A stretch of 63,518 nucleotides of DNA from Candidatus Thorarchaeota archaeon (GCA_019057475.1 DXJO01000013.1:1-63518); one strand, 5' to 3'; positions 6,232 to 63,079 are shown, numbered from the stretch's first letter. Translations and numbers: made by a program. Notes: generated by a model from the sequence alone, not told the origin.

Positions 6232-6392
6232 TGTGGCTCAGATAGCAGTAATTAGCTGGTGGTCAAAAAGGTATCCTCTGATTATCGAGTAATGCATCAT
6301 GCCTGCGGCAGCCACGCGGGGTTTGATTGAGAAGAAAGAAAACAGATAGAGCGACGCAGTTGAAACGGCGCTCCATCTTTGCATGTGAATGA

Positions 6393-22430: not shown

Positions 22431-23294
22431 TTAGTCCAGATCGGGCACATCAAGCAGGTCATCATCATCAGGGGCCTCGTCGGTTTCCTCAGGAAGAGCG
22501 TCCTTGATGTCATCGATGACGCGTCGAAGTCGCCGGCGAGTAGCCTTCGGTACGTCCCACATCTTCGCCTCAGCCCGCTCCACTACCTCACGTGCAATAT
22601 CAAATATCTCAGATTCCATGTAGCATTGAGCTGCGTTAACAAAATGCTCTGCGGCTTTTTTTTGGTTGTTCTTCAGCTCCGCGATATCACCTAACAATGA
22701 ATGAGCAGTACCTATCCCCGTTTTATCATCGAGGTCCTTGTAGAGCTTGAGAGCCTTTGCAAATGTTTTTGCGGCTGCCTCTAGGTCCTCTTTATCAGCC
22801 TGTGCAGTGCCGATGTCCATTAGCGTAACTGCGACAGCTTGGTCATTACCAATGGTCTTGTATACACGCTGAGCTTTCTTGAAGTAGTTCATTGCATCGT
22901 CGAAGTTGCCCAACCCAAGACGAGCAAGTGCAAGTCCGTACATCGCATCAGCAGTTCCGTCTTTATTGTCGGCTTTCTCAAAAATCTTCATGGATGCTTC
23001 GCATGCCTTTACAGCCGCGTCCCATTGCTCAAGGTTGATCTGAGCAACGCCAAGATTGTACATGGCATCGGCTGTTCCACTCTCATCCTTGAGACCTTGA
23101 TAGAGCTCCAAAGACCGCTCGAAGCTTTGAGCAGCTTCTTGAAACTCAGTTACTGACATGTAGATATTGCCAGCCGTATTGAATATCTTCGCAGCTTCCA
23201 ACTCATCGCCTTTGTCAAGTGCTGTAGCAGCTTGCTCTAGGAGTTCTGCAGGACCTATGATATCAGAGGAGAGTTCGTTGCTCAATAACCTCAC
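22431..23294 (-). CDS. Tetratricopeptide repeat protein
   Basis: ~40-aa repeats (ADAMYNLG, ADAMYGLA, AVTLMDIG, GTAHSLLG); acidic tail. Confidence 0.88.
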   Translation of the reverse strand: MRLLSNELSSDIIGPAELLEQAATALDKGDELEAAKIFNTAGNIYMSVTEFQEAAQSFERSLELYQGLKDESGTADAMYNLGVAQINLEQWDAAVKACEASMKIFEKADNKDGTADAMYGLALARLGLGNFDDAMNYFKKAQRVYKTIGNDQAVAVTLMDIGTAQADKEDLEAAAKTFAKALKLYKDLDDKTGIGTAHSLLGDIAELKNNQKKAAEHFVNAAQCYMESEIFDIAREVVERAEAKMWDVPKATRRRLRRVIDDIKDALPEETDEAPDDDDLLDVPDLD

Positions 23295-23345
23295 CGATTG
23301 AGTTGATGGCGGTTCAACGCGCTTTTGATTCTTTCTCCCTGACCG

Positions 23346-24047
23346 TCAGCGCTTCATTATCAAGACGGGGTTCTCAAGCAGAGGACGTATCGGTTCTTTC
23401 ACGGTGAAGCTCTCGTCACCCATAGCCACCTCAAGTAACTTTCTCAGCTCGAATCTCCGCAGGTAGCCCACTGCCTCCTCGCGGGGTAGGTTCAAGTCCT
23501 TCATCAACTTCTTCAGACCGCTCTTTTTGCCGCTGTGATCAGCGAAAGTGGAAAAGACTGTGCTCCATTGCATCATGCTGAGGTATAGCAGTGTTCTTAG
23601 CATACTGTCTACGTTTTTGCCAGTCTTAGCTGAAATTGGAATCACCGGAAGACCTGCTAGGAATCTCATCTTCTTACGCAGCTGAGTGACTCGTCGAGCC
23701 GCTTTTAGATCCTGTTTGTTAGCAGCAACAACACAAGGAACACCTGGAAGGAAAAACGCTATCTCTCTGAAGAAGAGCTTGGCACGTGCATCAGATTCAG
23801 GATCAACAGAGTCAACAACGAATATGATGCCATCAGCTCCCTCGCTCAGGATCTTCCTCATTGTTCTAAATCGTAGGAGTCCAGGTGTGCCAAACAAGAA
23901 GACATTGAGTCCATCAACATTTGCAAGGCCATGGTCCATGGCAATGGTTGTGCCTCTTCGTTCTATGTTAATGCAGGAACCATCAGTGATGTGATGTATG
24001 ATCTGGCTCTTGCCTGACCCATATGGCCCTGTAACTACAATCTTCAT
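23346..24047 (-). CDS. Small GTPase (MglA/CvnD-type) with C-terminal winged-helix-like segment
   Basis: GPYGSGKS, TTIAMDHG, LFGTPGLLRF, NKQD, SAK. Confidence 0.88.
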   Translation of the reverse strand: MKIVVTGPYGSGKSQIIHHITDGSCINIERRGTTIAMDHGLANVDGLNVFLFGTPGLLRFRTMRKILSEGADGIIFVVDSVDPESDARAKLFFREIAFFLPGVPCVVAANKQDLKAARRVTQLRKKMRFLAGLPVIPISAKTGKNVDSMLRTLLYLSMMQWSTVFSTFADHSGKKSGLKKLMKDLNLPREEAVGYLRRFELRKLLEVAMGDESFTVKEPIRPLLENPVLIMKR

Positions 24048-28995: not shown

Positions 28996-30795
28996 TCATT
29001 CAGAATCTTCAGTGTCCTTGTCATCCATGCTCGCGAGGATCTCGTCCATCTCATGGATGGCATCACCATCTGGGAACTCAGCATCCTCGCCAGCCTTTCG
29101 CTTGTCAACAGTTCTAGATATCGTCTTCTCAGTTTCGCTGTAGGCGGCCCATAGCTCCTTTATCGCGTCGTTACCAAAATCCTCAGCCCCTTCAGCCTTT
29201 GAGATATCATCTGCATATCCCGCGTCGTCATCAAGATAGCCAAGTATCTGATCAAGCTCTTCCACAATGGACAGCTCGACACTCTCAGGAGCATCATTCT
29301 CACCTTCGACGGGGATAACTTCGTCGGATGATAGTGCCTCAAGAGCTCCATCCACATCCTCGATGGTTGCCTTGTCCAGCTCAGCGGTGATTATGTCATC
29401 TGCATCAAGTACATCGGAGAGAAAATCTTTGGCAATTTTCAGGGTGGTTGTTTCTTGCTCATCAACCGTTGGGGTGGCTTCGATCTCTACCTCGCTGCGC
29501 TCCAGTTCCTCAAGCTCCTCGGAAAGAATCTCAACATTGATAGAACTGTCCTCAATTTTACCTGCTGGCTCAGCTGTAACCACATCAATCTCAAAGGCGA
29601 CTGGCATCTCGGATGGCTCAGACTCCGCTTCAGCGGCGACTACATCTTCAGGCTCTGCTACGACGGGGACTTCTTCCAGATCCTCAGATGCACTCACCGA
29701 CACCGTGACAATCTCGAACGTATCGGCGGTTGCATCAGCTTCAGCAGGCATATCCACAGGCTCCACGACATCTTCAATGATCTCATAGTCGTCAATGTCC
29801 TCTATGATGTTACCCTCTTCATCAACGAAGACCTCTTCTACGATCTCCTCATACTCCTCTTCTTCCTCGAATGTTTCAATTGCCTCTGTCTCTGCGGCTT
29901 CAGTGAATTGTAGAAGTTCGGATGCGGGCATGTCAGGGAGAACTACGCCGATATATTGAGCTGCTGCTGTCATCAGAATGCTAAGCATCTCATCCCGTCG
30001 ATTCTTGTCGATAGCCACCATGGGATACGTTGGGACTCCGAGGATTTTCCCCACAACCCCAGGTTTCATTGCATTCGGCAGATCCTGTTTGTTGGCCAGA
30101 GCGAACACGGGAACTTTGGGGGCATCTCGCCTTATCAGCTTGAGAATATCTCTGCTTATGATGACGTTGCGCAGACTTGAGTCGCAGACTAGAAAGATTA
30201 CGTCTGCCCCATGGAAGTAGAAGCGCCAGAGAGTCCGAAATCGCTCCTGCCCCGCAAAGTCCCACAAAACGAGCGAATAGTTCCCAAATCTAATGTTCTC
30301 AACAGTTTCCAGATTGAGCGCGATGGTTGGCACATACTGCAATGGGGGAGTTTCCCCGAGGAGAAGGTTCAGTGTTGTGGTCTTGCCAGTACCTCCTTCC
30401 CCGACTAACGCAATCTTCAGCCGGGTAATGACACAGGGCTCTATTAGTTTCTCGTAGGAATCAATGACTGCTTGGAGATCATCCTTCTTGAGCTTCCTTC
30501 TGAGAGCCTTCGCCGCAGTTTCGAGCTTGTTAGCTATGCCGCGTTCATCTTCTCTCTTGTCTGTCACGAAAACCAAGAGCGCGTCTTCGAGCCAATCAAC
30601 CGCCATGAATTTCATGTCATCGACTATCAGGGGCATCTCTGCGATATCGGCACCATGCGTTGTCTTGAGCTCCTCCCTCGTGGATAGGTACTCCAGCAGT
30701 TTTTCTTCAGGCAGTTCCACTGGCCAGTACTGCGTCGATGCAAGTACCTCTTTTGTCGAAATTCGGACCAGCAGAGTGTTGTGAATCATTGTCAA
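28996..30795 (-). CDS. Longin/roadblock-like domain + Arf/Rab-type small GTPase + long acidic tail
   Basis: GEGGTGKTT, YVPTI, WDFAGQERFRTLWRFYF, NKQDLPNAM; ~120-aa alpha/beta N-domain; ~300 aa rich in D/E. Confidence 0.85.
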   Translation of the reverse strand: MTMIHNTLLVRISTKEVLASTQYWPVELPEEKLLEYLSTREELKTTHGADIAEMPLIVDDMKFMAVDWLEDALLVFVTDKREDERGIANKLETAAKALRRKLKKDDLQAVIDSYEKLIEPCVITRLKIALVGEGGTGKTTTLNLLLGETPPLQYVPTIALNLETVENIRFGNYSLVLWDFAGQERFRTLWRFYFHGADVIFLVCDSSLRNVIISRDILKLIRRDAPKVPVFALANKQDLPNAMKPGVVGKILGVPTYPMVAIDKNRRDEMLSILMTAAAQYIGVVLPDMPASELLQFTEAAETEAIETFEEEEEYEEIVEEVFVDEEGNIIEDIDDYEIIEDVVEPVDMPAEADATADTFEIVTVSVSASEDLEEVPVVAEPEDVVAAEAESEPSEMPVAFEIDVVTAEPAGKIEDSSINVEILSEELEELERSEVEIEATPTVDEQETTTLKIAKDFLSDVLDADDIITAELDKATIEDVDGALEALSSDEVIPVEGENDAPESVELSIVEELDQILGYLDDDAGYADDISKAEGAEDFGNDAIKELWAAYSETEKTISRTVDKRKAGEDAEFPDGDAIHEMDEILASMDDKDTEDSE

Positions 30796-30999
30796 TCTTC
30801 ACCAGCTTAGGCGAGCAGAGGAGGTGAGTCCATTTTCCATTCAGGTCAGCCCACATGGCAATTAAACCTTTCACGGTTGAACCCAGAACCTCTTTGGCTG
30901 TATTATCGCGCTTCGTTGGATAATACCCAGGACTCTGTATATCCCTTGTCTGGTGCATTAGTTACAACTAATTATAAGATATCTAGGTCATATATTCGC

Positions 31000-31500
31000 T
31001 CAGCTTGTCAATGTGAAGACATGTATCTCAGGAGAATAAGAGAATCAAAAGGCGGAATTTGGAAGCAGAGGACTGCCGGGCCAAAGCCGCTTTAGAGGCA
31101 GGACCCCCTGCATCCGTGGAGCCGTTCTACCTAGGACACGGAAAATGCGCAAGTATTGGCCCTTCGCAAGGGACCAATCAAATGGGGACCATTTGCTAGA
31201 ACTCATTTGGGACCATGCATTGCGAATGCGAGTTCAATGACGGGGGGAACCGTGTACCCAGATTTCGGGCGAATTACCATCACAGTAAAGCAACATATGA
31301 GTCTTTCTGGTTTTCAAGATATGGAGCAGCGATTCCTGAATCGCTATTGCCTGAAGAAGGTGAATAGAGCCGTTCTGTCGGAGAATTTCACTGTCAGATG
31401 GATTAGAAGCTGGGCTAATCGTGGGTGCGCTATCGCGATGCCACTACGAGCTGGAATCAGTCCATAGTATCAGTGGGATGGCTACTGAAGCATTGCGATT
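31000..31500 (+). ncRNA. Candidate large (~450-500 nt) structured RNA of unknown class
   Basis: No credible ORF; TTATAAG at 30972; more than ten consecutive hairpins; six GGAC motifs and two GAGCCGTTCT modules. Ends and strand approximate. Confidence 0.5.
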
Positions 31501-31513
31501 TGGACATGAGAAC

Positions 31514-32653
31514 CTACCTTGGGAAGTTGTCCCTCAAAAGCCGTAGGTGTTGATGGACCATCTCACGTTGCGCGTCATCGTCAGGGTTCTGCTCAAGATT
31601 CACAATCAGGGTCTGTAGGAAGTATTCAGGGAAGAATAGTCTGACTCGGATGTCATTCAAAAGGAAAAGCCACTTATCATATTCTCCCGATGGCCCTTTC
31701 CTCCTCTTTTCTGAAACAACTCGATACTTCTTCAATGTCTGAGCGGCTTGTTTCAATTCCTTGGGAGGGATGCCCAAAGTTGCTTCAAGCTCGGAGATAT
31801 TCACAGGATGGCGTCTAAGAAGAGTTAGTGTGTCGTAACAATCGGGATCCGCGAGTATGTTTGAAACCGCGACTGTGTCATCAGGTGTCTTTTGCCACTC
31901 CGTGAGGAACTCAAGCACTTCACTCTTGTATTCAGCCGCTAGCTCCGGATCGAGAACTGAACTCGCCGCATCCATGGCAGTTAGTGGAGGTGCACGAAAG
32001 ATCTCTAAGTCCTTCACCAAGAAGATGCAGGTCCGTCCTATCTCATCAACCCATTCTGTCTTCACAAGACCTAATTCCTCGAAGGGTGCGATGATGGAAT
32101 CCACGCTTACGCTGGGGAGACCTGTGACCATCTTAAGCCACTCTTCGAGATTCTCTTTGGATATGCCGCCCTTCCAAAGCTTCGGGAATACCGCACGAGA
32201 AACCTCATCAGAAAAGAGACGAGCAAGACGAGACTCATCAGTCATTCCTGCAAGTCTGATTATTCTACGGTATGTGCTGTCAAGTTCAACCTGCAGTTCA
32301 GCATCAGTCATTGATATTACTGCGTTAGTGATTGGAGACACGATAGAGGTGATTGCTGCCTCGTAGACCTTGGGGTCCTCACCGGGGGTAAGCAGTAAGG
32401 AGATGCAATACTGTTCTTCCTCCCTCACAAGTCCAGTATAGTATGATGCAACATTGTATTCCTCGCCCCCGATTCGAATGCTCAGGGAGGCGAACCCTGC
32501 TGTGGCATCCCCCATGGCGTGTGATGTGAAGATGCGCATGATCTCCGTATTGAGATCTTCGCGGTAATAATCAGCAAAATCTCCTGGGACTTTCGCCTTG
32601 AGGACAGCCCCTATTTTCGAGTCCCAATCTATAAGCAACATCGCTACTGGCAT
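31514..32653 (-). CDS. uDENN/longin-like domain protein with C-terminal winged-helix domains
   Basis: N-terminal LIDWDSKIGAVLKAKVP pattern typical of uDENN-type longins; HTH-like ISELEATLGIPPKELKQAAQTLKKYRVV. Confidence 0.6.
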   Translation of the reverse strand: MPVAMLLIDWDSKIGAVLKAKVPGDFADYYREDLNTEIMRIFTSHAMGDATAGFASLSIRIGGEEYNVASYYTGLVREEEQYCISLLLTPGEDPKVYEAAITSIVSPITNAVISMTDAELQVELDSTYRRIIRLAGMTDESRLARLFSDEVSRAVFPKLWKGGISKENLEEWLKMVTGLPSVSVDSIIAPFEELGLVKTEWVDEIGRTCIFLVKDLEIFRAPPLTAMDAASSVLDPELAAEYKSEVLEFLTEWQKTPDDTVAVSNILADPDCYDTLTLLRRHPVNISELEATLGIPPKELKQAAQTLKKYRVVSEKRRKGPSGEYDKWLFLLNDIRVRLFFPEYFLQTLIVNLEQNPDDDAQREMVHQHLRLLRDNFPR

Positions 32654-39431: not shown

Positions 39432-39944
39432 CTACGCGAGGCTTGCCGTGGCAAGCAGACGGAAGGCCTCCTCAACGTTTTGCCCGCTCAATGCACTTGT
39501 TTCAAGGAATCCGTTAAGACCATTTTCTTCCACAAACTGCTCGCACATCTCAGTTGAAATCACTCTCTCTTCGACAAGGTCTATCTTATTCGCAAGCAAG
39601 ATAATCGGAATCCTGTGGCCCAGGGATTTCTCAGTTTCCTCAATCCATTTTGAAAGTTCAAGGAAGGTGTTCTTCCGGGTTGTGTCAAAGACAAGCAGTG
39701 CTCCCTTTGAGCCCTTGTAGTAACTGCTTCTGATGAAATCGAACCGCTGTTGACCTGCCAGATCCCAGACGAGAAGCTTCACGTTCACGAGATTCCCAGT
39801 GGTGCTCTCTACTGTTACAGTTTTGACGGCGAACTGGCTGCCAATCGTCACGATGTACTGCTCTGTGAACTTGTGTGTTAGGAAGCGATTGACCAGAGCG
39901 GTCTTGCCGCTGCCCCCAGCGCCAATCAAGACCACCTTGCGCAT
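39432..39944 (-). CDS. Rab-like small GTPase, no prenylation tail
   Basis: GAGGSGKT, TIGSQF, WDLAGQQRF, YYKGSKGALLVFD, NKID, ETSA. Confidence 0.93.
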   Translation of the reverse strand: MRKVVLIGAGGSGKTALVNRFLTHKFTEQYIVTIGSQFAVKTVTVESTTGNLVNVKLLVWDLAGQQRFDFIRSSYYKGSKGALLVFDTTRKNTFLELSKWIEETEKSLGHRIPIILLANKIDLVEERVISTEMCEQFVEENGLNGFLETSALSGQNVEEAFRLLATASLA

Positions 39945-40220
39945 AAATATCACTTCGCCTGACAATTGCATACCGCAACCCTACATCGTTCGCTATCAAA
40001 TGCGTGGAAGTATCTTATGAGAGTTGTAAAAACAACATCCTCCAAACATCCGATGCATAATTGAACTCGCTTAGACTCTATTTAGCCTTTGTCGGAATGA
40101 ACCCTCCTGAGGAAAGATGAAAGCTCAGTCAAGGATTGGCGCGATAGGAGCCCAAATACCACACAAGCGCGAAGGAGTTATATCACGCTCGCAAAGGATG
40201 AATGAATGGGGGCACGCACT

Positions 40221-51970: not shown

Positions 51971-53824
51971 TTAAACGGCGAATTCCGATACTCTGAGGTC
52001 TCTATGGCTCATGAATAAGAGGAACACAGGCATAGTCGACAGCACCACTACTATGAGCATTGACATTAGCATGATAGCAATAGCCGTTGGGAGATATAGT
52101 AGCGAAGGAACTGCAGCTTCGGGCACCAGGAAGTAGATGCTGAATAGTGTCGCTACTAAAACCGCTGGAAGGCCAGCAGTGAGCCCGACTCCAACCCCTT
52201 CTGCAATCATTGTCCTTGCAATAAATGAAGGCTTCGCACCAATTGACTTCATAATCACATAGTCTCGAAATCTGCCAAATACTGAAACCAGTAGATAGTT
52301 CATCAAGCTCAGGAATGCACTGAGGAGTGCTATCAATGGTAGTGGCTGTAGCAGACTCCAAAAGGCGCCAAGGGTTTTCAAATTGCTTTCAAGAACCTCT
52401 TGCTGTAGGAAAATTCCAAATCCGGTCTCACCCGATACAAGCGACTGAATTCGTGAAATCATGGATGGGGAGTAGTCTTCCACTTGCACTAGAACGAGAT
52501 TACTCTCTGCTATGCCATAGAGCTGCTGCATAATGGAGATATCCATGAGAGTTATGTTGCCACCGTTGATAACATCAAAGGCTATCGCCTTGACCTCGAA
52601 TGAGGACCCATGAACTCCAAGACTCTGTATGAGAGGGTCCTCAAAAAGCGTGTCCGCCATCCCCCCACCAATCCACACTTGTTGAGAGGAATTTGTTTCA
52701 TCACCGTAGTAATACCAATCGGATACTGTATTGTCCCAATCCAAACCGACAACGAGCGCCTCTCCAACCCTCGAATCCCCGATGAGTTCGTACTGTCCAA
52801 GATTATCATTCCAGAGAGCTTTGGCAATCTCTGAAACCGTCGCATAGTCCACTAGTCGCTGTTCAACTCGTGAAACTCCAGAGAGGGCTTCCAAGTCCGC
52901 TATGAGTGTGGAAGGCACCATGTACGGTGCGTCGATGAAACTGAAGGATTCGTTGAGCATAGAACCTGTCAGAGAATACGCATCATAGTATTGAGCTAGG
53001 AGATCTGGATTGCCGACAGCTATAACGTTTGTTCCCATAGATCGTGAAATGTAGGCGTCGGTAGTTGTATCGACAATCCCTCCGCCAATCCAAAGCAGGG
53101 ATGCCAGAGAAAAGCTTAGGAAGAGCGAGAGGGTGGTTCTTCGCGTACCCTTGATTCGCCGTCCGGTGGCCTTTGTGGCAATCTTGAAGGGAAGCCCGAA
53201 GCTATCAAGGAAACCATGCTTCTTGACCTTCATACCAACGTTGGGATTCAGTGCATCAATGGGAGTTTCATGAACAGTAGAGTAGATAGGTTGTTGCGCT
53301 GAAAAGTATCCAATGAGTAGATAGACGCCGCTAAGAAGAGCCACCTGAAGCACTGGATACTGAAATGTGAACTGTGCGTTGGGGAGCACAGAGGCGAGCC
53401 AGATAAGCCCGGCAAAGTATAGCAGGGTTCCAGCGGTGACTCCAAGTGCCACCCCTCCGGCTAACAGTATCACCGCTTGTGTCATGAAATGGTCAAATAT
53501 CGTGTCCATCAAAGTTCCGATAGCCTTCATTAATCCAATATCCTTCCTTCTGCTCACCATTTCCAAAGAGATTGTGCTTGAAACAACCACAGTGCCCAAA
53601 ACAAAGACCAACAGCAAGACCGACCAAATGAAGGTTTCAAAGAATACCCGCATGGATGATGCTGATGGAGTCGATGTCAGGAGTGTTGTCACGTCCAACA
53701 ACACATTCCCAAACAGGAAGAGGAATGTTGTCGAAGCCACGACACTGGAAATAGAGAGAAGTGCAAGAGCTGTACGAAATGGTCTGCGTCTGAGATCCTG
53801 CGATGCGTAATCTTGTTCAGACAT
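51971..53824 (-). CDS. FtsX/MacB-like ABC permease with two FtsX domains
   Basis: RRKDIGLMKAIG and RFRDYVIMKSIGA; extracellular domain before the second repeat. Confidence 0.88.
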   Translation of the reverse strand: MSEQDYASQDLRRRPFRTALALLSISSVVASTTFLFLFGNVLLDVTTLLTSTPSASSMRVFFETFIWSVLLLVFVLGTVVVSSTISLEMVSRRKDIGLMKAIGTLMDTIFDHFMTQAVILLAGGVALGVTAGTLLYFAGLIWLASVLPNAQFTFQYPVLQVALLSGVYLLIGYFSAQQPIYSTVHETPIDALNPNVGMKVKKHGFLDSFGLPFKIATKATGRRIKGTRRTTLSLFLSFSLASLLWIGGGIVDTTTDAYISRSMGTNVIAVGNPDLLAQYYDAYSLTGSMLNESFSFIDAPYMVPSTLIADLEALSGVSRVEQRLVDYATVSEIAKALWNDNLGQYELIGDSRVGEALVVGLDWDNTVSDWYYYGDETNSSQQVWIGGGMADTLFEDPLIQSLGVHGSSFEVKAIAFDVINGGNITLMDISIMQQLYGIAESNLVLVQVEDYSPSMISRIQSLVSGETGFGIFLQQEVLESNLKTLGAFWSLLQPLPLIALLSAFLSLMNYLLVSVFGRFRDYVIMKSIGAKPSFIARTMIAEGVGVGLTAGLPAVLVATLFSIYFLVPEAAVPSLLYLPTAIAIMLMSMLIVVVLSTMPVFLLFMSHRDLRVSEFAV

Positions 53825-54566
53825 CGCTCAGCAACTCTCCTTGTGACATTCTGAAGCGGCGCACTTCCGGCACCGAGAAAATCTTCTCATCGTGCGTCAT
53901 GACGATAACTGCTTTGCCTCCGTTGTTGAGATTGCGTAGTATTGCCCGGACCATTTCCGCACTCACTTCGTCCAAATTTGCCGTCGGTTCGTCTGCAAGA
54001 ATGATTGGAGGGTCGTTTGCCATTGCTCGCGCTAGGGCGACCCTTTGTTGCTCTCCAGAACTCAACTGCCAAGGCAGGTGATCCAATCTGTCCTTCATGT
54101 CAACCATTTCAAGCAGGCGGTGAGCCTCTGCATTCAGCTCTGGGATTGGTTTGGAAGATAGCTGCATGGGAAACATGACATTCTCAATTGCAGTCAATGT
54201 AGAGATTAGATTATAGCTCTGGAACATGTAGCCAGTGTTCTGAAGTCGGAACGTAGCCCTAAAGGACTCATCATAATCCTCTATTGGAACATCCATAACG
54301 TGGATCCGGCCCTCCGTAACTGAGTCTATTGCCCCAATTATATTCAGAAGTGTCGTCTTTCCCGATCCTGAATGCCCTGAAATAACAATGTAGTCCCCCA
54401 TGCCAACCTCAAGACTGACACCGCGGACTGCATCAATTTTTCTTTTGCCTAACGTGTAGGTTCGTGACACATTTACGAGCAGCACCGCGTGGCGTACTTC
54501 GTCTAACCCTTCAACATCAAGCTCATCATGGGCCTTATCGGCTCCTAGGATAGTATCTTCATCCAT
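53817..54566 (-). CDS. ABC ATP-binding protein (LolD type)
   Basis: GHSGSGKTT, LSSGEQQR, ADEPTANLD, MTHD. Confidence 0.94.
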   Translation of the reverse strand: MDEDTILGADKAHDELDVEGLDEVRHAVLLVNVSRTYTLGKRKIDAVRGVSLEVGMGDYIVISGHSGSGKTTLLNIIGAIDSVTEGRIHVMDVPIEDYDESFRATFRLQNTGYMFQSYNLISTLTAIENVMFPMQLSSKPIPELNAEAHRLLEMVDMKDRLDHLPWQLSSGEQQRVALARAMANDPPIILADEPTANLDEVSAEMVRAILRNLNNGGKAVIVMTHDEKIFSVPEVRRFRMSQGELLSDV

Positions 54567-54702: not shown

Positions 54703-55467
54703 CTATACCAGAGCGAAGTTCGTCAACGCAGAGTGAGCCCATGACGCCAAGATCATGGGCCTTTCGCGTCCAAACACTCGAATCGTGTTCAGCACTCCTA
54801 AGGAGAGAAGATTGCTGATATAGTACGAAACCAGGCTCTTGTCAAGAGACAATGTCCTGCTCAGCTCAGCCTGGGTAACTCGACCATTCTTCATGCACTC
54901 AAAGAGAATCGAGGCAACTGTCGAGTTCCTTGACATAGCTGTCAGTCGCAGGACCTGCTCATCGTCGGAGAACTCAGGTAGGAAGAAGTGCCTAGAGTTG
55001 CCGTTCTTGAGAGAGGTTATGTAGCCACCCCGTTCTAGATGCTTCAGATGATATTGAAGAGCCCCCATAGCGCATCCCAGATAACGTCGCAGCTCACGCA
55101 AGTGTATACCAGGGTTGGAGGCGATTTCATCAACTATGCGGTCTCGCAGCTTTGGTGGGCTTTTCTCATCTCGTCGCGAGATTGATACGGTGCCCGCAGC
55201 GAGAACAAAGATGCAGGATGGAGTGTAGAGCTTAGCGATGACTCCGGGGAGGAGCACAGCCGTCCCGCCGCTCACTGGTGCGGCAAGGACTTGAAAATCA
55301 ATGAATACTGTTTCCGAAGATCCAGAGAACGAAAGATCCTGGACTGCAACGTCCGGACCAGTTGGGATTGAATTGAAGAGAAGCATACTAGCGACTCCAG
55401 TAAGAACGAGTGTTAGAGTCACAGCCAGTACGGCTTTTCTAGTACGGTCTCCCATGATTCTGCCCAT
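54703..55467 (-). CDS. Membrane-anchored double winged-helix transcriptional regulator
   Basis: N-terminal TM; NPGIHLRELRRYLG...LQYHLKHLE; TQAELSRTL...VSYYISNL. Confidence 0.82.
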   Translation of the reverse strand: MGRIMGDRTRKAVLAVTLTLVLTGVASMLLFNSIPTGPDVAVQDLSFSGSSETVFIDFQVLAAPVSGGTAVLLPGVIAKLYTPSCIFVLAAGTVSISRRDEKSPPKLRDRIVDEIASNPGIHLRELRRYLGCAMGALQYHLKHLERGGYITSLKNGNSRHFFLPEFSDDEQVLRLTAMSRNSTVASILFECMKNGRVTQAELSRTLSLDKSLVSYYISNLLSLGVLNTIRVFGRERPMILASWAHSALTNFALV

Positions 55468-55717: not shown

Positions 55718-56263
55718 TTACCCGCGGGCCGGATATGTCATCGTAATTCTGAACGTACATGCCTTGTGGCCTACCGACATGCAGGTGTCCTCGATGACAT
55801 CAAGCTTCTCGAATGTGATCCTATTGAAGTCAATTAAATACTCCAAGACCGCTTCAATGAATCCCTTCAAGAAGTGACAGGAGGGTTCAGCGCTCTCGTA
55901 ACCTGAGGCATAAGGATTGTCCTCAATCTCTATGATTGCCTCCTCGTCCAGCCAAAGCTTGTAGAGCTTCGCAATCTTAATGTCGCCGAATGGTACAATG
56001 AGCGTTTCAAGTGCAAGTTTGATGAACTCGATAATCCCCTTGAAATCACCTGGAGGCTTTTGTTTCCCCAATTTGAAATACTCACGCTGTGTTTCAAGAC
56101 CGGCCAAACGACCTGCGCTGTAGTAGAGCGTAGCAGTCTTTTCAGGAAACATGACCATGATTCTACTGCCAAGCTTGTTCCAAGTTTTCGAGAAGAAGGC
56201 TTGCATTAGTTGGCGATCTTTCAGCTTACCTTTCCACCACGGAATTACTTCTCTATCGGGCAT
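55718..56263 (-). CDS. V4R domain protein
   Basis: LYYSAGRLAG, NPYA, PSCHFLKGFIEA, EDTCMSVGHKACTF. Confidence 0.85.
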   Translation of the reverse strand: MPDREVIPWWKGKLKDRQLMQAFFSKTWNKLGSRIMVMFPEKTATLYYSAGRLAGLETQREYFKLGKQKPPGDFKGIIEFIKLALETLIVPFGDIKIAKLYKLWLDEEAIIEIEDNPYASGYESAEPSCHFLKGFIEAVLEYLIDFNRITFEKLDVIEDTCMSVGHKACTFRITMTYPARG

Positions 56264-56332
56264 CTGAATTGCTCCAGTTGGAGTTTACTCTCCGGGGGTT
56301 GTTAAGTGCTTTGTGCTGATATAACGGTGAGA

Positions 56333-56809
56333 TCACCATACGAGGCGTACGTTCCAAGTGCAAACGTCGGCCCCGGTAGCGCGACACATCTCCTGAAAGA
56401 CCTTGGACTCTACGCCCTTAAACTCAAGAATAGATTCGAGAATGCCACTGAAGATTTCACAGTAGCCGAAGCCGCGCATCCCCTCGAGATGCACATCTTG
56501 GCACCACAAGCAGTCTTTGTCAGTCACACGAACAGAACCACGAGCCGTTTCCATGTCTACATTGGAGGGCTTCTTGCCAAAGAGACTCTTGAATACAACG
56601 TCCATCAGCTTAGCGACATCTTCCCTAGTGGATACGGTGTCCTTCGTCTTGTCGACTATCTCGGTAGTGAGGTACACCTGTGAGCCAATCTCACGGCCAA
56701 GGTCACGCAAGCGCTGATTTGCATCTTCAATGTTAGCTGTACTAGATAGTACTTCTTCGACGTATTTTGAATATAGGGTGAGAAGTAAGGGATTCTGTAT
56801 CTTCGCCAT
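56333..56809 (-). CDS. Bet3/TRAPPC3-like (V4R fold) protein
   Basis: LLLTLY..YVEEVL...EDANQRLRDLGREIG; VFKSLFGKKP; YCEIFSGILESILE; CRATGADVC. Confidence 0.8.
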   Translation of the reverse strand: MAKIQNPLLLTLYSKYVEEVLSSTANIEDANQRLRDLGREIGSQVYLTTEIVDKTKDTVSTREDVAKLMDVVFKSLFGKKPSNVDMETARGSVRVTDKDCLWCQDVHLEGMRGFGYCEIFSGILESILEFKGVESKVFQEMCRATGADVCTWNVRLVW

Positions 56810-56837
56810 TGAACTCTGACCTCAGATGGTTAGTCAC

Positions 56838-57833
56838 TTACACTGTCTTTCCGATCATCTTGAGACCATGCTTCCTGTAAAGTGCAACGGTCTGAATGAC
56901 CTTAACGTGTGCAACACCCAGAAGCTCTGCAATCGCGTCCGTCGTCTGTGTGCCGTCGCATGCATTAATGATGCGTCTATCTTCCGGCTTAACCTTGTTA
57001 GGAGATCCCTCGTACTTGGGGCACTTCACAAAGCGGCCAAGAGTTGCTTCCTTTTTCTTGACCTGGCCTGTTTCAATTGGGACTTCGACTATTCCCTTGG
57101 AAGCCGCCCACTTCAACAGATCCGCCACGCGCTCATTGGATTGAAACATTGAATCTGCAATCCGTTCCACGTTTTGTGTGCCGTCAACAAGCATCAGCAC
57201 ATCAAACCCGAAGTTGCGGTATTTCTTCTTCATCTCCTTGTGCATCTCTGATTCAAGGGTTAGGGCCGCTGAGTATGTTTCACCTCGCTTTGGAACTGTA
57301 GAAGGTTGCACTGCGAAATCCTCTGGTGACCGTTCAATGACTGGTGCAGGTGCTGCAGATACTGCAGGTGATGCCACCGCAGTCTTTGGCTCCTCAACAG
57401 GCAGTCCATTGGAAAAAGGCACCGGGGAAGTGGAGGCAGCATTGATTGCCATAGTTTCTAGTACTTGGAGATTCCCCTCCACAGAATCCTCGAACTCGTC
57501 AGGTGGAGGAGGCAGTTCAATACCTTCTAGCTGGCGCAACACGTTTTTCGTCTTTGCTATCGCCAAGCCTAGCTGCAATTCAGGAACATAGAGAACCGTT
57601 AGTATCCAGTTTACGTCCACTGGTGACAGGACCACTAAGCCCTTCTCAGTATCTATTGTCATAAGCCGCAGATCGGACTTGTAAAGACTGATACTATCCC
57701 TAACGCGGGGAAACAGCTCATCAGGAAACGAGAAGCTGACAAAGGGCCGTCCGTCCTTGGTCATCAATGAGTAACCCAATACTTGGTCATCAAATCTAAG
57801 CTTTGATAGAGCTCGTTCCAAATCGGTCGTCAT
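56838..57833 (-). CDS. Roadblock-like domain + Pro-rich linker + tandem winged-helix protein (copy 1)
   Basis: VLGYSLMTKDGRPF...LGLAIAK; PPPP; VLMLVDGTQNVERIA and IINACDGTQTTDAIA; ATG 57833. Confidence 0.75.
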   Translation of the reverse strand: MTTDLERALSKLRFDDQVLGYSLMTKDGRPFVSFSFPDELFPRVRDSISLYKSDLRLMTIDTEKGLVVLSPVDVNWILTVLYVPELQLGLAIAKTKNVLRQLEGIELPPPPDEFEDSVEGNLQVLETMAINAASTSPVPFSNGLPVEEPKTAVASPAVSAAPAPVIERSPEDFAVQPSTVPKRGETYSAALTLESEMHKEMKKKYRNFGFDVLMLVDGTQNVERIADSMFQSNERVADLLKWAASKGIVEVPIETGQVKKKEATLGRFVKCPKYEGSPNKVKPEDRRIINACDGTQTTDAIAELLGVAHVKVIQTVALYRKHGLKMIGKTV

Positions 57834-58159
57834 TCTGGCGCACCTTGTAATTCTAATCTGCACTCGGTCCCGCGTGTGCACACTCTTTTCTCAGAGTATT
57901 CTGAAAAGCATTGTGGTATTATACTTGATGAAAGGGGGTCTGAGTGGCCCAAACGAAACTAGCTAGGACTCTATTCTGGATTCAATGACAACCTAGCGGC
58001 ACGAAATCGTGCATGGGTGGTCAAAGATGTGCACTACTTACTCCGACCGGGCTGAACAAATGGCCAAACATACAAAGCGCTGGATCAACCCACTGTTACC
58101 TAGCCCAAAATGATTAAGACTCGAACGGACATTCTCAGGACTGCGAAAAAGGAGAAGGA

Positions 58160-58747
58160 TTGACAAGAATGCGGAATATTATCGGAGGTCTGGTCGGTGC
58201 ACTGGTTGGTTCAAGCATGATTGTCATCCTGCTGGCTTTGCTTCCAACCGAGTATCCGTCACCATTCGGCCTATTCTGGATAGCCTTCAGCGGTAGTGAT
58301 TCGCTTCTGGCTTCTGCAACCGGCTTGCTCAGTCCAACCACTTGGATATTGTACGTCATGACGTGGATTGCGATTGGGCTGGTAACTGCGCCGTTCGCTA
58401 AATCGGAATGGAATGCTGTGCGAACAGCCCTTTGGGTCGGTGTGTTCCTCTCTGTATTCGCTGTTTCATCCGCTCTGCTCTTGGATCCCACGCTGTGGAC
58501 ACTTGATAGAGAAGCGAGAAACATCTACTTCGTTCTGCAGTTTGCTAGTGGAATCGCATATTCGCTACTGTCCCTAGTCAGCTCGATACCATTAGCAATA
58601 CTGTTCCAGAAAGCGAGAAGAGAATCTGAGGCGCCCCCTCCAATCAAGATTGAAACTATATGTGAATGTGGAGCGGTCTTCAAATCTGCTCCGCTCATGT
58701 GCGCGGAGTGTGGACGGATTCTCAGAAACGAGTCTGAAGCAGTCTGA
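58160..58747 (+). CDS. Membrane protein with C-terminal Zn ribbon
   Basis: 4 TM, then CECG...CAECG. Confidence 0.75.
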   Translation: MTRMRNIIGGLVGALVGSSMIVILLALLPTEYPSPFGLFWIAFSGSDSLLASATGLLSPTTWILYVMTWIAIGLVTAPFAKSEWNAVRTALWVGVFLSVFAVSSALLLDPTLWTLDREARNIYFVLQFASGIAYSLLSLVSSIPLAILFQKARRESEAPPPIKIETICECGAVFKSAPLMCAECGRILRNESEAV

Positions 58748-58761
58748 TTAGAGTGCGGCGC

Positions 58762-59295
58762 CTACCGCTCCCTGCTGATTCCTCCACCGAGGAGACCCCC
58801 AAAAGCTGTTGCTATAGCTGGATACAACATGCCAGTGAGCACTCTCTGAAGGAGTAGCATGGATTCGGCACCAGCAATCTGTGTGAAGTCTGGTACTTGG
58901 ACAAAGAAGACCAACAGCCAAATCAAGAAAGCCCCTATGATAGCTGAGAACAATGCCGAAAGAACTCCAGGCAATATGTCCTTAGACAGAAGACCAGCAA
59001 TGAGACCACCCAGTCCCCAGGTTAGAAACATCAAGACCGGCACTTCCTGCGCACCATACGTCAGACCTACTCCCAATTCAGAGGGATAGAGCACAGTTCC
59101 CATAACAACCAACTTGAGCTCCAAATCAGTAAATGTCAGAAAGTCATTAATGATTCGCGGGTCGACTACATCCGGGGGAATGAACAGACCGAATGTCAGT
59201 ATCACGAATGTAACCGTGAAAGTAACTACTAGGCCCACGAGTGTGCCAAGACCTTGTCCCAAATGATTTCCTCCATGCGTGCTTGCTGCTATCAA
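58762..59295 (-). CDS. Gly-rich multi-pass membrane protein
   Basis: 4 hydrophobic segments; GGLIAG, GGLLGGG. Confidence 0.75.
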   Translation of the reverse strand: MIAASTHGGNHLGQGLGTLVGLVVTFTVTFVILTFGLFIPPDVVDPRIINDFLTFTDLELKLVVMGTVLYPSELGVGLTYGAQEVPVLMFLTWGLGGLIAGLLSKDILPGVLSALFSAIIGAFLIWLLVFFVQVPDFTQIAGAESMLLLQRVLTGMLYPAIATAFGGLLGGGISRER

Positions 59296-59317
59296 TAGGA
59301 AGTAATCCAGAGCATTT

Positions 59318-60004
59318 ATGCCTATTCTATGCGGGCATAGACTGTGTGATTCAACCTTGAACAGAATCGTGGACCTTACATTACCTCTCTATGCTGATGT
59401 GCCAGTCAGACCGGGCGATCCCGGGGTCGTCATGGATGAGCTCGCAGATATCGCCACTGAGGGGTACCGTTTGACTCATCTCTCAATGGGCACTCACACT
59501 GGTACTCACATAGACGCTCCTTCGCACATTATCGAATCGGGAAACACTCTGAACAACATCAGTTTCGATGTATTAGTAGGGCCATGTTGCCTTGTGAATG
59601 TGGCAGGCGAACCGGAGTCTTCTATTACGTTGGACGACCTCATTATTCACAAGGATGTTATCAGAAGTACCGGTCGTGTTGTTCTCAAATCGGGTTGGGC
59701 GAAACGGTGGGGCACGCCGGAGTACTACAGCAATTCACCGTCCATCACCATAGAGGCTGCGCGATGGCTTACGGGAAAAGATGTACATGTGAAGCTAGTT
59801 GGCTTCGACATGCCTACGCCATCAGTGAAGCAAGAAATAGACATCCATAAGGTGTTTCTCGAAGGGGGCATTCCTATAGTAGAATGTCTGAATCTTGAGA
59901 ACCTGACTCAATCTCACTTCGAGATAGTGGTGGCCCCACTCCCGCTGCGTAACCGAGAGGGAGCCCCGTGTAGAGTGTTTGGTTTACTCAATCGGTCTTC
60001 CTGA
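59318..60004 (+). CDS. Cyclase family metal-dependent hydrolase (kynurenine formamidase-like)
   Basis: DLT.P, HTGTHIDAPSH, GFDMPTP, H..FL, IVECL, GAPCR. Confidence 0.92.
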   Translation: MPILCGHRLCDSTLNRIVDLTLPLYADVPVRPGDPGVVMDELADIATEGYRLTHLSMGTHTGTHIDAPSHIIESGNTLNNISFDVLVGPCCLVNVAGEPESSITLDDLIIHKDVIRSTGRVVLKSGWAKRWGTPEYYSNSPSITIEAARWLTGKDVHVKLVGFDMPTPSVKQEIDIHKVFLEGGIPIVECLNLENLTQSHFEIVVAPLPLRNREGAPCRVFGLLNRSS

Positions 60005-60494
60005 TGGTCCAAGTGCAGTCTGCATCACCCAATGCCTTGCAGGACTCTTGATACGTTTCGCCCTTGAATCCTCGGAGATCCAATACCGCTTGAAATACAC
60101 CACTAATCAGATTGCAGTATTGAAGTCCAGGCATGTCCGTAATTTCAACGCCCTCACATATCGGACAGTCTGCATCAGTGAACTTCAAAGTCCGCTTGTC
60201 TTCACTCACCGAAACCGACGAGAATGGTTGTCCAGAATTCACCCTATACGCTAGCTGCAGCGTCTTGCCAAATTCGTGAAACTCGCTTGCGTGTTGGCGG
60301 ATCTTATCTGCATAGTCAAGCAAGAGATGCTCGCCCACGCGGAAGCCGATCTCCTTCAATCGCTGATTGATGATCTCCACGTTCTCACTCGAACTCATCA
60401 AGTTGTTCATTAGTTCTCTGTAGATTGCTTAGAAAAGGGGCTTTGATACTTTGTCGATTTTGAAAGTCCAAGCAAGTTTTCCTTTAATACCCAT
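59988..60494 (-). CDS. Bet3/TRAPPC3-like (V4R fold) protein with an in-frame TAA at codon 22 (pseudogene, base error or restart at 60410)
   Basis: GGAGTG + ATG 60494: MGIKGKLAWTFKIDKVSKPLF*AIYRELMNNL...INQRLKEIGFRVG; paralog of 56333..56809. Confidence 0.75.
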
Positions 60495-60518
60495 TTTTAT
60501 TCACTCCAAATAATGATG

Positions 60519-61448
60519 CTATTCTCTGGTTTTTCTAATCATTTTGAGGCTCTTGCCGCGATAAGGTACAATGCACTGTAGAGCATTGAAGTACAGTATG
60601 CCAAGTTTTTCTGCAATCTCATGGACTGTTAGTGTGCCGTCACAAAGCTCAAGAACATCTCTATGGTTCTTTTTCGCCTTCTTGATTTTACCCTCGAAAA
60701 GGGGCAGTTCTACAATCTCTTTGGCACTGGTTTCCTGCGCCTCCGGACACTCTACATCAACGACACCTTTTTGCAGACACCACTGAACAACCTCAAGCAC
60801 TTGCTCAATTCGCTTTGACAGGTCATCTGCAATCTTGACAACCGTGCGCTTCTCGTCCACCATTAGAAGGACGTCCACGCCTACATTGGCGAACTGCTTC
60901 TTGAACTCAATGTTCAGAGCTGAGTCAATCTTGAGTGCATCGGCATACGCAACTCCGCGTAGTATAACACAACCATGTCTGGCCTTGGTGTCAGAAGGAA
61001 TCAACTCCTCAGCTTTCGCCATCACAACTGATTGCGGGGTTTCCTCAACAGCAGGACTGATGGCAGCTGAAGTCCCTGAGCCGATTTCCGATGTAACTGG
61101 AATTGGATGCTCAACAGGCGCCGGTGGAGGCGGAAGCGTGACGTCTTCAAGAAGTCGCGCCACCTCCTTGACCTTTTGAAGTGCGCTACCAAGTGACTCT
61201 GTGGGTTCGAAAAGAACGCCAAGGATCCATTGCGGGTCCACTCGAGCCAGAATCACCGTGCCTGCATCGGTCATGATATTCATGAGTCGAAGAGATGATT
61301 CATGGATTCGGAGAGTGCCCTGAATCGGAGGAAGAGCCTCGTCAGGTAAGGAGAAGGACAGAAATGGTTGGCCATCATTTGTAATCAGAGCATAACCATT
61401 GACCGACTCGTCATACCTAAGCTTACCAAGTACACGCTCGAGTTCCAA
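60519..61448 (-). CDS. Roadblock-like domain + Pro-rich linker + tandem winged-helix protein (copy 2)
   Basis: Aligns end to end with 56838..57833 (LER.L.KLR.D, DG.PF.SFS.PDE, LPPPP, CDGT.T...IAE.LG, LKMI.KT). Confidence 0.78.
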   Translation of the reverse strand: MELERVLGKLRYDESVNGYALITNDGQPFLSFSLPDEALPPIQGTLRIHESSLRLMNIMTDAGTVILARVDPQWILGVLFEPTESLGSALQKVKEVARLLEDVTLPPPPAPVEHPIPVTSEIGSGTSAAISPAVEETPQSVVMAKAEELIPSDTKARHGCVILRGVAYADALKIDSALNIEFKKQFANVGVDVLLMVDEKRTVVKIADDLSKRIEQVLEVVQWCLQKGVVDVECPEAQETSAKEIVELPLFEGKIKKAKKNHRDVLELCDGTLTVHEIAEKLGILYFNALQCIVPYRGKSLKMIRKTRE

Positions 61449-61499: not shown

Positions 61500-62606
61500 T
61501 TACTCCATAAGTAAGTTTGTAGCACTTTCACGAACGGCAGGAGTAGAACTCAGAAACTCGATTACCTCTTCGCGAGAGGGGTGCGTGACTGAAGCGGAAG
61601 ATACATAGAGAGCAGCAACGGCGTCTGCGAGGTGAAGGCGATCCTTCGTCTGGAGACCGGTGAGTGTGCCATAGATATTCCCGGCATTCCAAGCATCTCC
61701 CGCACCACACATTAGTTTACATTCAACCTTGAATGTCGACACCACTGTGGTTTCAGCATCTTCAATCGACGCAGAGAATTCAGGCGTATGGAGATCTACT
61801 CGAACTCCGGTTTCCTTTGAAACCAGTTTCGCCGCGTTGAGCCACTCGGTGGAATCCTGCATCGCTCCGCGCCAGTAATCATCTTCTCCCGAGACCACCC
61901 CAGCAAGCCAGCAAGCCTCGTTTTCGTTCATTCCCAGAATGTCGACAAGACCCTCCGAGAGCACTTGACTGACGAGAGGCTGCAATATGCTCATGTTATC
62001 AGAAGGATCACCTATGTCAAGATACGTTGTTGCACTGGTTTCATCACGGACCATCCTGAACAAGTCCTCGGCAAGGCTAGCACCGTGTCGATTATGATTG
62101 AGACATAGGAGCGCTACAAGGCCGCTGTTGCGTATGGCATCCAGGTCATTCTCGCTGAGCATGGAGAATTCAAATCCTGCCGCCGAACCACTATCGCTGA
62201 CCATCAGGTTGACCTTGCGACCCCGATACTCCGTTTCTATTGAAACTGTGGCTGAGAGACGGCCTTCGGTATGAACATGACTAAGATCCAGCTCTGGACT
62301 AACCAGACCTCTGAGCATGGAAGCGCCGTGTTCATCAGTTGTTACAATAAGACACGGGTCTGCTCCTAGTGATAGAAGGGCAGACGCAGTATTGACAGAG
62401 TTCCCGCCGCGGCGAATCAACTGAGTGGTATTCATCAAGCTGCCACCGCCTTGATCAGCCAATCCCCTTAATCCAGTCAAGAAGCCTTCGAACTCATCAA
62501 CCAGTACGAAATGATCAAGGAAGAAATCCGGCATGACCACAACACGTGGCATCTCTGGAGGGTTCTGTAATTTCTCAACGAGCTGATCGTAGTCCAGCTC
62601 AATCAC
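61500..62606 (-). CDS. PfkB family carbohydrate kinase
   Basis: GGNSVNTA, NENEA, GAGDAWNAG. Confidence 0.9.
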   Translation of the reverse strand: MIELDYDQLVEKLQNPPEMPRVVVMPDFFLDHFVLVDEFEGFLTGLRGLADQGGGSLMNTTQLIRRGGNSVNTASALLSLGADPCLIVTTDEHGASMLRGLVSPELDLSHVHTEGRLSATVSIETEYRGRKVNLMVSDSGSAAGFEFSMLSENDLDAIRNSGLVALLCLNHNRHGASLAEDLFRMVRDETSATTYLDIGDPSDNMSILQPLVSQVLSEGLVDILGMNENEACWLAGVVSGEDDYWRGAMQDSTEWLNAAKLVSKETGVRVDLHTPEFSASIEDAETTVVSTFKVECKLMCGAGDAWNAGNIYGTLTGLQTKDRLHLADAVAALYVSSASVTHPSREEVIEFLSSTPAVRESATNLLME

Positions 62607-62635: not shown

Positions 62636-63079
62636 TTAAATCTTCTTCAGTGCAGCCTTGACCATCGCTGTGACTCTGTCCTCGTCAATCCCCGTCTTCT
62701 TGGCCACTTTTGTAATTTCACAGTATGCGAGGTCGGACATATTCATTATGCCGATTTCTGCGAGCTGTTTTGCTTCGACCTTCTTAACCGCCCTGAGTGA
62801 AAAGAGCTCATCGATTGCTTTGTCCAATCCCTTCACAGGCTTAGGCTTTGAAACCGTGGCTGCAATCTTTTTCACATCTTTAGCGTACTGCTTGAGAGCA
62901 TCGATGTTCTCCTGATGAGTTGTCTTCCTGCGAAGGTCCACAATTAGACCCATCCTTCGCGCCTCAGCAATTGTCAGTCCTGCTTGTTTTGCCTCATCTA
63001 TACTGAATCCACGACCTATCTTTGGACGTGCATCTCTTGGTGATTTCACAACAGGCTCAGCAAAGGTATCAAAGCTCAT
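62636..63079 (-). CDS. rpl13e: 50S ribosomal protein L13e with C-terminal helix-hairpin-helix domain
   Basis: GRGFSIDE..AGL...AR.MG..VDLRRKT.H.EN; extra ~60 aa (AKQLAEIGI...DLA...VAKKTGI). Confidence 0.9.
   Translation of the reverse strand: MSFDTFAEPVVKSPRDARPKIGRGFSIDEAKQAGLTIAEARRMGLIVDLRRKTTHQENIDALKQYAKDVKKIAATVSKPKPVKGLDKAIDELFSLRAVKKVEAKQLAEIGIMNMSDLAYCEITKVAKKTGIDEDRVTAMVKAALKKI

Follow-up and report, generated by a model that had tools for sequence, protein, structure and literature searches.

A duplicated pairing of roadblock/winged-helix and Bet3-fold genes in Thorarchaeaceae, a candidate GTPase-regulating module of Asgard archaea

In this study we analyzed a stretch of 63,518 nucleotides (nt) of DNA from a Candidatus Thorarchaeota archaeon (GCA_019057475.1 DXJO01000013.1:1-63518, hereafter the window), in which five genes, A1, B1, A2, B2 and B3, lie on the minus strand at the positions that a preliminary description, made from the sequence alone, had assigned to them. 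The A genes encode proteins that carry a roadblock domain followed by two winged helices, and the B genes encode proteins of the Bet3/TRAPPC3 and V4R family. The main finding is that an A gene with a Bet3-like gene directly downstream occurs twice at this locus, in a gene order that is conserved across the family. We tentatively favor a reading, plausible though short of probable, in which these genes constitute an Asgard-specific module whose products form one hetero-oligomer that regulates a Ras/Rab-like GTPase; the complex and its GTPase-regulating role are inferred from folds and gene order. The five genes are as follows.

A1, 60519-61448, minus strand: 309 amino acids (aa); roadblock domain (aa 1-110), PPPP and acidic disordered linker (aa 113-151), two winged helices (aa 152-309).
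B1, 59988-60494, minus strand: Bet3/TRAPPC3-like; in-frame TAA at 60429-60431, open frame 59988-60410 (140 aa).
A2, 56838-57833, minus strand: 331 aa; paralogue of A1 with the same architecture.
B2, 56333-56809, minus strand: 158 aa; orthologue of the crystallised Thor-TRAPPC3, zinc-binding Bet3 fold.
B3, 55718-56263, minus strand: 181 aa; carries a V4R domain; third gene with a Bet3/V4R fold in the cassette.

As the preliminary description had proposed, the two-gene unit is duplicated within the locus: A1 and A2 share 38% identity over their full length (328 aa, E 2e-70), and B1 and B2 share 29% identity over 139 aa (E 1e-29). The gaps of 24-28 bp that it gave between the partners agree with our measurements: the ancestral B1 ATG (60494) lies 24 nt after the A1 stop, and the B2 ATG lies 28 nt after the A2 stop. 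Both gaps contain a Shine-Dalgarno-like GGAG/GAGG, and the co-directional spacing within the cassettes is 24-70 nt. The third V4R gene that it placed after the second cassette is also there, B3 passing the Pfam V4R model and matching B2 weakly in its C-terminal part (E 0.006). A scan of the whole genome (3.34 Mb, 96% complete) detected exactly two A genes and exactly two genes of the Pfam TRAPP family (PF04051), all of them at this locus, indicating that the duplicated pairing is not due to chance.

The AlphaFold 2 model of A1, built from 42 homologues, has a predicted local distance difference test score (pLDDT) of 80 and divides the protein into three parts, an N-domain (residues 1-110), an invariant LPPPP followed by an acidic disordered linker (113-151), and two winged helices. 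In this model the secondary structure of the N-domain, H-E-E-H-E-E-E-H, follows the alpha-beta-beta-alpha-beta-beta-beta-alpha order of roadblock domains. Its best fold match is Roadblock3 of MK-D1 (Z 12.9, root mean square deviation 2.4, 103 aa), followed by LAMTOR2 and MglC (both Z 12.7), Streptomyces roadblock domains (Z 11.6) and MglB (Z 11.5). Roadblock chains rank above longin chains of the same superfamily (Z 12.9 vs about 10), and the N-terminal helix gives the domain a roadblock topology. By this modelling the N-domain of A is of the roadblock fold, a point on which the preliminary description had made its proposal depend in advance. Several A orthologues are named as members of the Roadblock/LC7/MglB family by the Joint Genome Institute, while the Pfam Robl_LC7 model gives no match to A1 or A2 at E up to 1. 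One position, where the fourth beta-strand of the roadblock domain ends, sets the two paralogues apart: all A1-type proteins compared have Arg there (Arg69 of A1, 30/30) and all A2-type proteins have Pro (residue 71 of A2, 30/30).

The C-terminal half of A, modelled by itself (pLDDT 86.7), has Npr2, NPRL2 and NPRL3 in the first seven places of its Foldseek ranking (E 2.8e-4 to 8.7e-3), the next match being at 0.04. Exhaustive VIA alignment against 48,161 chains is likewise led by NPRL2 (Z 10.2) and Npr2 (Z 10.1), with DNA-binding winged helix-turn-helix (HTH) proteins at 7.3 or less. Rigid superposition on the NPRL2-type domain is limited to the first winged helix of A. A search of the ESM Atlas with the same half returned eukaryotic NPR2 clusters and actinobacterial DUF742 (TM 0.42/0.51 over 79 aa), and whole A1 aligns to NPRL2 over 367 columns (E 4e-6), though its domains are oriented differently. 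Among solved folds, those nearest to the modelled winged helices are thus the C-terminal domains of NPRL2/Npr2/NPRL3, which bears out the resemblance to the NPRL2 C-terminus that had been noted from the sequence. At the level of sequence profiles, Pfam NPR2 (PF06218) gives no match to A1 or A2 at E up to 1, matches of A to DUF742 (13.6 bits, cut-off 27) and HTH_47 are sub-threshold, and a distant Asgard relative of A (L041, 360 aa) reaches 13.7 bits to NPR2 (cut-off 27.5). A PDB sequence search with the A profile gave nothing useful, and ESM Atlas look-ups for A gave only unnamed Asgard clusters. A single-sequence search with A1 against protein representatives yielded just 25 clusters, the majority of them fragments, at E up to 1e-3, and the distant relatives were reached only by profiles searched against fetched loci. 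As a separate observation, conservation of His158, Cys160, Cys234 and His262 of A1 reaches 97-100% among A1-type proteins, and A2-type proteins lack all four; together these residues may bind a metal as a Cys2His2 site joining the two winged helices.

The B proteins are assigned more directly. With Pfam curated cut-offs of 27 bits for PF04051 and 31 bits for PF02830 (V4R), B2 (42.6 bits) and B1 (29.7 bits) pass the former and B3 (45.2 bits) passes the latter. B2 matches the crystal structures 7YH3 (E 7e-78) and 7YH2 (E 2.7e-77) over residues 1-157 and, in the PDB sequence search, also one eukaryotic TRAPPC5 chain. For B1 the match to 7YH2 is at 5e-20 and those to eukaryotic TRAPPC3 chains range from 6e-7 to 4e-4, and the same search with B3 gave nothing useful. 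Thor-TRAPPC3, solved from SMTZ1-45 (7YH3) and AB25 (7YH2), is a zinc-bound homodimer with an internal cavity, is closest to eukaryotic TRAPPC3 and probably binds a ligand (Tran et al. 2024, PMC10933270); its zinc replaces a hydrogen bond of mouse TRAPPC3 (PMC10933270). B2 has the same CxxC...C...C zinc ligands and matches over its full length, and this motif is invariant across B1-type and B2-type proteins. By sequence comparison, B2 is an orthologue of Thor-TRAPPC3, its Bet3 fold being known from that close relative, and B1 is a paralogue. The structural paper treats the protein alone, as a homodimer, and mentions neither gene neighbours nor an upstream partner gene, B1 or B3 (PMC10933270).

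The pairing is conserved in other genomes, another point on which the preliminary description had made its proposal depend. Our sample of the phylum comprised 301 genomes, 76 of them of the same family and one of a sister family. A is present in 75/76 of the same-family genomes and PF04051 in 72/76, and both are present in the sister-family genome. The same gene order recurs without change at 28 loci from 14 genera: ribosomal protein L13e, PfkB, A1, B1, a membrane-protein gene, an inverted membrane-protein gene, A2, B2, B3, a winged-helix regulator and an ABC (ATP-binding cassette) ATPase. A2 is 61-68% identical to its orthologues in other genera. In the tree of A, the A1 and A2 clades each have support of 99 in the Shimodaira-Hasegawa-like approximate likelihood ratio test (SH-aLRT), and in the tree of B the B1, B2 and B3 clades have SH-aLRT support of 98-99, with one member per genome in every clade. 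These clean paralogue clades indicate that the A-B unit had already been duplicated when the family radiated. Only one cassette, A-B-B3, is present in the sister family, whose B3 copy is sister to the family's B3 clade. The A genes and the Bet3-like genes each fall into two clades, a pattern that fits duplication as a unit, as had been suggested.

The other genes at the locus are the following; mem1 and mem2, between the two cassettes in 28/28 loci, are as strictly conserved as the cassettes themselves.

Ribosomal protein L13e, 62636-63079, minus strand: conserved upstream neighbour, syntenic.
PfkB-family kinase, 61500-62606, minus strand: conserved upstream neighbour, syntenic.
Cyclase-family gene, 59318-60004, plus strand: PF04199 at E 4.8e-27; shares 17 nt with the 3' end of B1.
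mem1, 58762-59295, minus strand: multi-pass membrane protein between the cassettes; no Pfam match.
mem2, 58160-58747, plus strand: membrane protein on the opposite strand with a C-terminal Cys-rich, zinc-ribbon-like CxxC...CxxC tail; no Pfam match.
Membrane-anchored double winged-helix regulator, 54703-55467, minus strand: matches to HTH_HVO_0163_N, HTH_24 and MarR_2; syntenic neighbour.
ABC ATPase, 53817-54566, minus strand: conserved neighbour, syntenic across the loci examined.
FtsX-type permease, 51971-53824, minus strand: neighbour beside the ABC ATPase.

Comparable modules are found beyond Thorarchaeia. In three genomes of the Asgard family f19, one or two Bet3/V4R-like genes come directly after a same-strand gene for a protein of about 250-260 aa, which combines an LPxP motif and a linker with the CDG..IAE winged helix seen in A (hhalign 96.8%, E 2.9e-10). 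Two genomes of family f16 have a Bet3-like and a V4R-like gene followed by a gene for a 244-aa protein with a weak longin match (Fuz_longin_1, E 0.012) and again this winged helix (hhalign 60%, E 8.7e-5). The winged-helix proteins of both families were recovered by hmmsearch at E 1e-7 to 7e-9, reading frames overlap in the modules of both, and the flanking genes are unrelated to the Thorarchaeia neighbours. Two counter-examples exist. In family f12 a shorter A homologue, consisting of the roadblock domain and first winged helix (E 4e-33; L037 1486-2268, L039 955-1818), always follows a glutamyl-tRNA synthetase gene and has no Bet3/V4R-like neighbour, and at one f24 locus a Bet3-like gene has no A-like neighbour. 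Separately, at the f16 locus L015 a gene of the IS605 OrfB/TnpB type (1156-2466) lies 1.5 kb upstream of the Bet3-like/V4R-like/platform triplet.

In this genus B1 is in decay: the frame 59988-60494, which the preliminary description took as an open gene, carries TAA (60429-60431) at codon 22. This codon encodes Gln in 27/27 orthologues and became TAA here through a single C-to-T change, so that the intact frame starts at ATG 60410 and the first part of the N-terminal helix is lost. The TAA base is also present, at a depth of about 40, in a Logan contig of the probable source run, a contig that is not independent of the sample, while related populations in two other studies have CAA at codon 22. 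In further contigs a deletion of 407-416 bp (60083-60500) takes out most of B1, and the sister genomes L010 and L011 are in the same deletion state with a 34-codon remnant left. The remainder of B1 is still 64-78% identical to its orthologues and its branch is not long, indicating that the lesion is recent. A1 is intact in all of these same-genus genomes and is 86-90% identical where B1 is gone. Thus the A1-B1 partnership is not strictly obligate, and the earlier suggestion of obligate binding partners is contradicted for this pair by the nonsense codon here and the deletion in the sister genomes. B1 in the window would be either a fresh pseudogene or a gene for an N-terminally truncated protein, in which case A2-B2-B3 would be the sole complete set and A1 would work alone or with B2/B3. 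The insertion of the cyclase gene is genus-specific, being present in L010 and L011 and absent from 26 loci of the family's other genera; it coincides with the decay of B1.

In the model that we tentatively favor, the ancestral module would have had three genes, one for a platform protein (roadblock domain, flexible acidic linker and NPRL2/DUF742-type winged helices) followed by two for Bet3/V4R-fold zinc proteins, and duplication of the first two genes in Thorarchaeaceae would have given A1-B1 and A2-B2-B3. The A and B products would assemble into one hetero-oligomer, in which the Bet3-fold proteins would dimerise, either binding a hydrophobic ligand or serving as a scaffold. The roadblock domains would also dimerise, possibly as an A1/A2 heterodimer like NPRL2/NPRL3, and the platform would switch a Ras/Rab-like GTPase encoded elsewhere, as a GTPase-activating protein (GAP) or an exchange factor for guanine nucleotides (GEF). 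The link to GTPase regulation is drawn by analogy with the roadblock/longin platforms of MglB, Ragulator and GATOR1, with the conservon and with NPRL2/NPRL3.

Several points weigh against this model. Prokaryotic V4R domains are usually sensor domains of transcription factors. No GTPase gene is found in the conserved block (28 loci), nor beside the f19 cassette. The loss of B1 beside a retained A1 shows, at the sequence level, that B1 is dispensable in this genus. The Pfam models NPR2, DUF742 and Robl_LC7 are all below threshold on A. An A-B interface is neither experimental nor predicted, the one complex prediction for A2 with B2 (an alignment for each) having scored 0.08 against a mark of 0.32 and given no interface, a result that carries no weight either way. 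Finally, Tran et al. make the case that Thor-TRAPPC3 binds a ligand (PMC10933270).

Candidate GTPases are nevertheless encoded in the genome, which has 24 matches to the Ras model, about 16 of them strong; the strong match nearest to the cassette (39432-39971) is some 16 kb off. At a single sister-family locus, L009, the orthologue of the GTPase at 23346-24047 of the window divergently adjoins the cassette. There, at 5004-6800, the orthologous GTPase gene is followed by a 332-aa gene and stands head-to-head with the single A-B-B3 cassette. In the window, at 22431-24047, the gene for a divergent small GTPase of 233 aa precedes one for a tetratricopeptide repeat protein, and the best PDB matches of the GTPase are Rab1/Ypt1, weakly (E 5e-11). 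Elsewhere in the window (28996-32653), a 599-aa protein with an Arf/Ras-like G domain (residues 125-262) and a long tail is encoded beside a 379-aa protein (31514-32653) with an HTH segment that faintly resembles A's second winged helix; this 379-aa protein was considered as a relative of A and rejected, having no significant hhalign relation to A and no Pfam match.

The main rival explanation, which we regard as unlikely although it survives better than the others, is a split transcription switch of the MsvR/XylR type, in which the B zinc proteins would sense either a small hydrophobic molecule or, via the Cys4-Zn site, redox state, and the A winged helices would bind DNA and regulate the neighbouring membrane-protein, HTH and ABC genes. 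MsvR and PoxR/DmpR/XylR likewise combine a V4R/Bet3-fold sensor and its Cys-rich metal site with winged helices, whereas here sensor and winged helices are on separate proteins. B1, B2 and B3 all match the V4R part of the MsvR model weakly (E 1e-4 to 2e-3), and orthologues of B2 have a cavity and a zinc site (PMC10933270); however, the MsvR model (NF053755) scores 18-22 bits on the B proteins with a cut-off of 220. With a pI of 9.4 (net +4 to +5), the second winged helix of A is basic and has a conserved basic tail at its end, but both recognition helices are neutral to acidic and the whole A protein is acidic, which weakens this explanation. The nearest folds of these winged helices, moreover, bind protein or peptide (NPRL2/3, DUF742, PqqD/RRE; Z 10 vs 7.3 or less for DNA-binding proteins), so that they look protein-binding. 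The conserved neighbours do include a membrane-anchored winged-helix regulator and an ABC transporter, yet these neighbour genes are not conserved around the f19 and f16 modules.

It is also conceivable, though decidedly unlikely in our view, that the genes are co-regulated neighbours whose products form no complex, the B proteins being stand-alone binders or carriers of small molecules and the A proteins scaffolds for others, such as the two membrane proteins. The persistence of A1 in genomes that have lost B1 and the strict synteny of the two membrane-protein genes, equal to that of the B genes, would suit such an arrangement. However, A-like and B-like genes are adjacent again in distant Asgard families amid otherwise unrelated genes, and the 24-28 nt spacing with a ribosome-binding site, together with the overlapping frames in f16 and f19, suggests co-translation.

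Comparison with known systems helps to place the A proteins. NPRL2 and NPRL3 (yeast Npr2 and Npr3) are paralogous subunits of GATOR1/SEACIT, the GAP for RagA/Gtr1. Like them, A has an N-terminal domain of the roadblock/longin superfamily, a linker and a C-terminal winged-helix region, and exists as two paralogues; unlike them, its N-domain has roadblock rather than longin topology, it has no DEPDC5-like partner and its neighbour is Bet3-like. To our knowledge, the combination of an NPRL2-like protein with a Bet3-like neighbour does not occur in eukaryotes. NPRL2 and NPRL3 heterodimerise through both domains, and an Arg finger (Arg78) is present on NPRL2 only (PMC8534245). The invariant Arg of A1 against the Pro of A2 recalls this NPRL2-only finger, the structural equivalence of Arg69 and Arg78 not being established. 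A narrower form of our model, in which A1/A2 would be an NPRL2/NPRL3-like heterodimer with the Arg69 finger from A1 only and the Bet3/V4R zinc proteins would serve as metabolite- or lipid-sensing subunits, seems improbable to us. The actinobacterial conservon consists of a kinase (CvnA), a roadblock protein (CvnB/MfpD), a DUF742 protein (CvnC/MfpC) and a GTPase (CvnD/MfpB). A joins a roadblock domain and a DUF742-like winged helix in one chain, but the conserved block here has Bet3/V4R-fold genes in place of a kinase or GTPase gene, and the DUF742 score is about half the cut-off. The roadblock protein of conservons acts as GAP and the DUF742 protein as GEF (PMC9769811, PMC11343762, PMC13621833).

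The least likely of the explanations is a true proto-TRAPP, which the preliminary description had put forward as a candidate. The core of eukaryotic TRAPP comprises Bet3/TRAPPC3, Trs31/C5 and Trs33/C6 together with the longin subunits Bet5, Trs23 and Trs20, and the locus resembles it in encoding several Bet3-fold paralogues together with a roadblock/longin-superfamily protein. That B1, B2 and B3 would form homo- or heterodimers and act, with the A roadblock in place of Bet5/Trs23/Trs20, as a Rab-type exchange factor is very improbable: B1 and B2 do pass the Pfam TRAPP threshold and match eukaryotic TRAPPC3/TRAPPC5 chains, three Bet3/V4R paralogues do stand beside roadblock-fold partners and Rab-like GTPases are present in the genome, but the A architecture, a roadblock with tandem winged helices, matches NPRL2/3 and CvnB plus CvnC and not the sedlin/Bet5 longins, the conserved block is without a GTPase gene, and B1 has been lost in this genus. 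We do not place the module in TRAPP proper, and no gene for a sedlin/Bet5-type longin subunit is present in the block.

The components themselves are less new than had been supposed. An orthologue of B2 has been crystallised, and a preprint by Liu et al. describes, in most Thor metagenome-assembled genomes, a family that couples a longin domain to a C-terminal domain specific to NPRL2 (10.1101/2020.10.19.343400); this family is probably the A family. TRAPP and V4R go unmentioned in the text of that preprint. Both protein families are thus already published, and the new part is their pairing; a full-text literature search turned up no account of this pairing, of how it was duplicated or of how widely it occurs. 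Gene order in Asgard archaea rarely shows which regulator pairs with which partner (Tran et al., PMC10933270).

In summary, Asgard "eukaryotic signature proteins" are mostly orphans, and this locus is an exception in showing a strictly conserved, operon-like pairing, through which an NPRL2-like platform and a V4R paralogue become candidate partners of the crystallised Thor-TRAPPC3. One genus has lost B1 naturally, which offers a ready-made test of how far the partners depend on each other. The pairing bears on the long-standing question of whether TRAPP-like and GATOR-like GTPase regulators may have existed as complexes before eukaryotes. The narrower, improbable form of our model, with an NPRL2/NPRL3-like A1/A2 heterodimer, would, if true, describe an archaeal GTPase regulator in which a single complex unites elements that in eukaryotes were later divided between GATOR1 and TRAPP.

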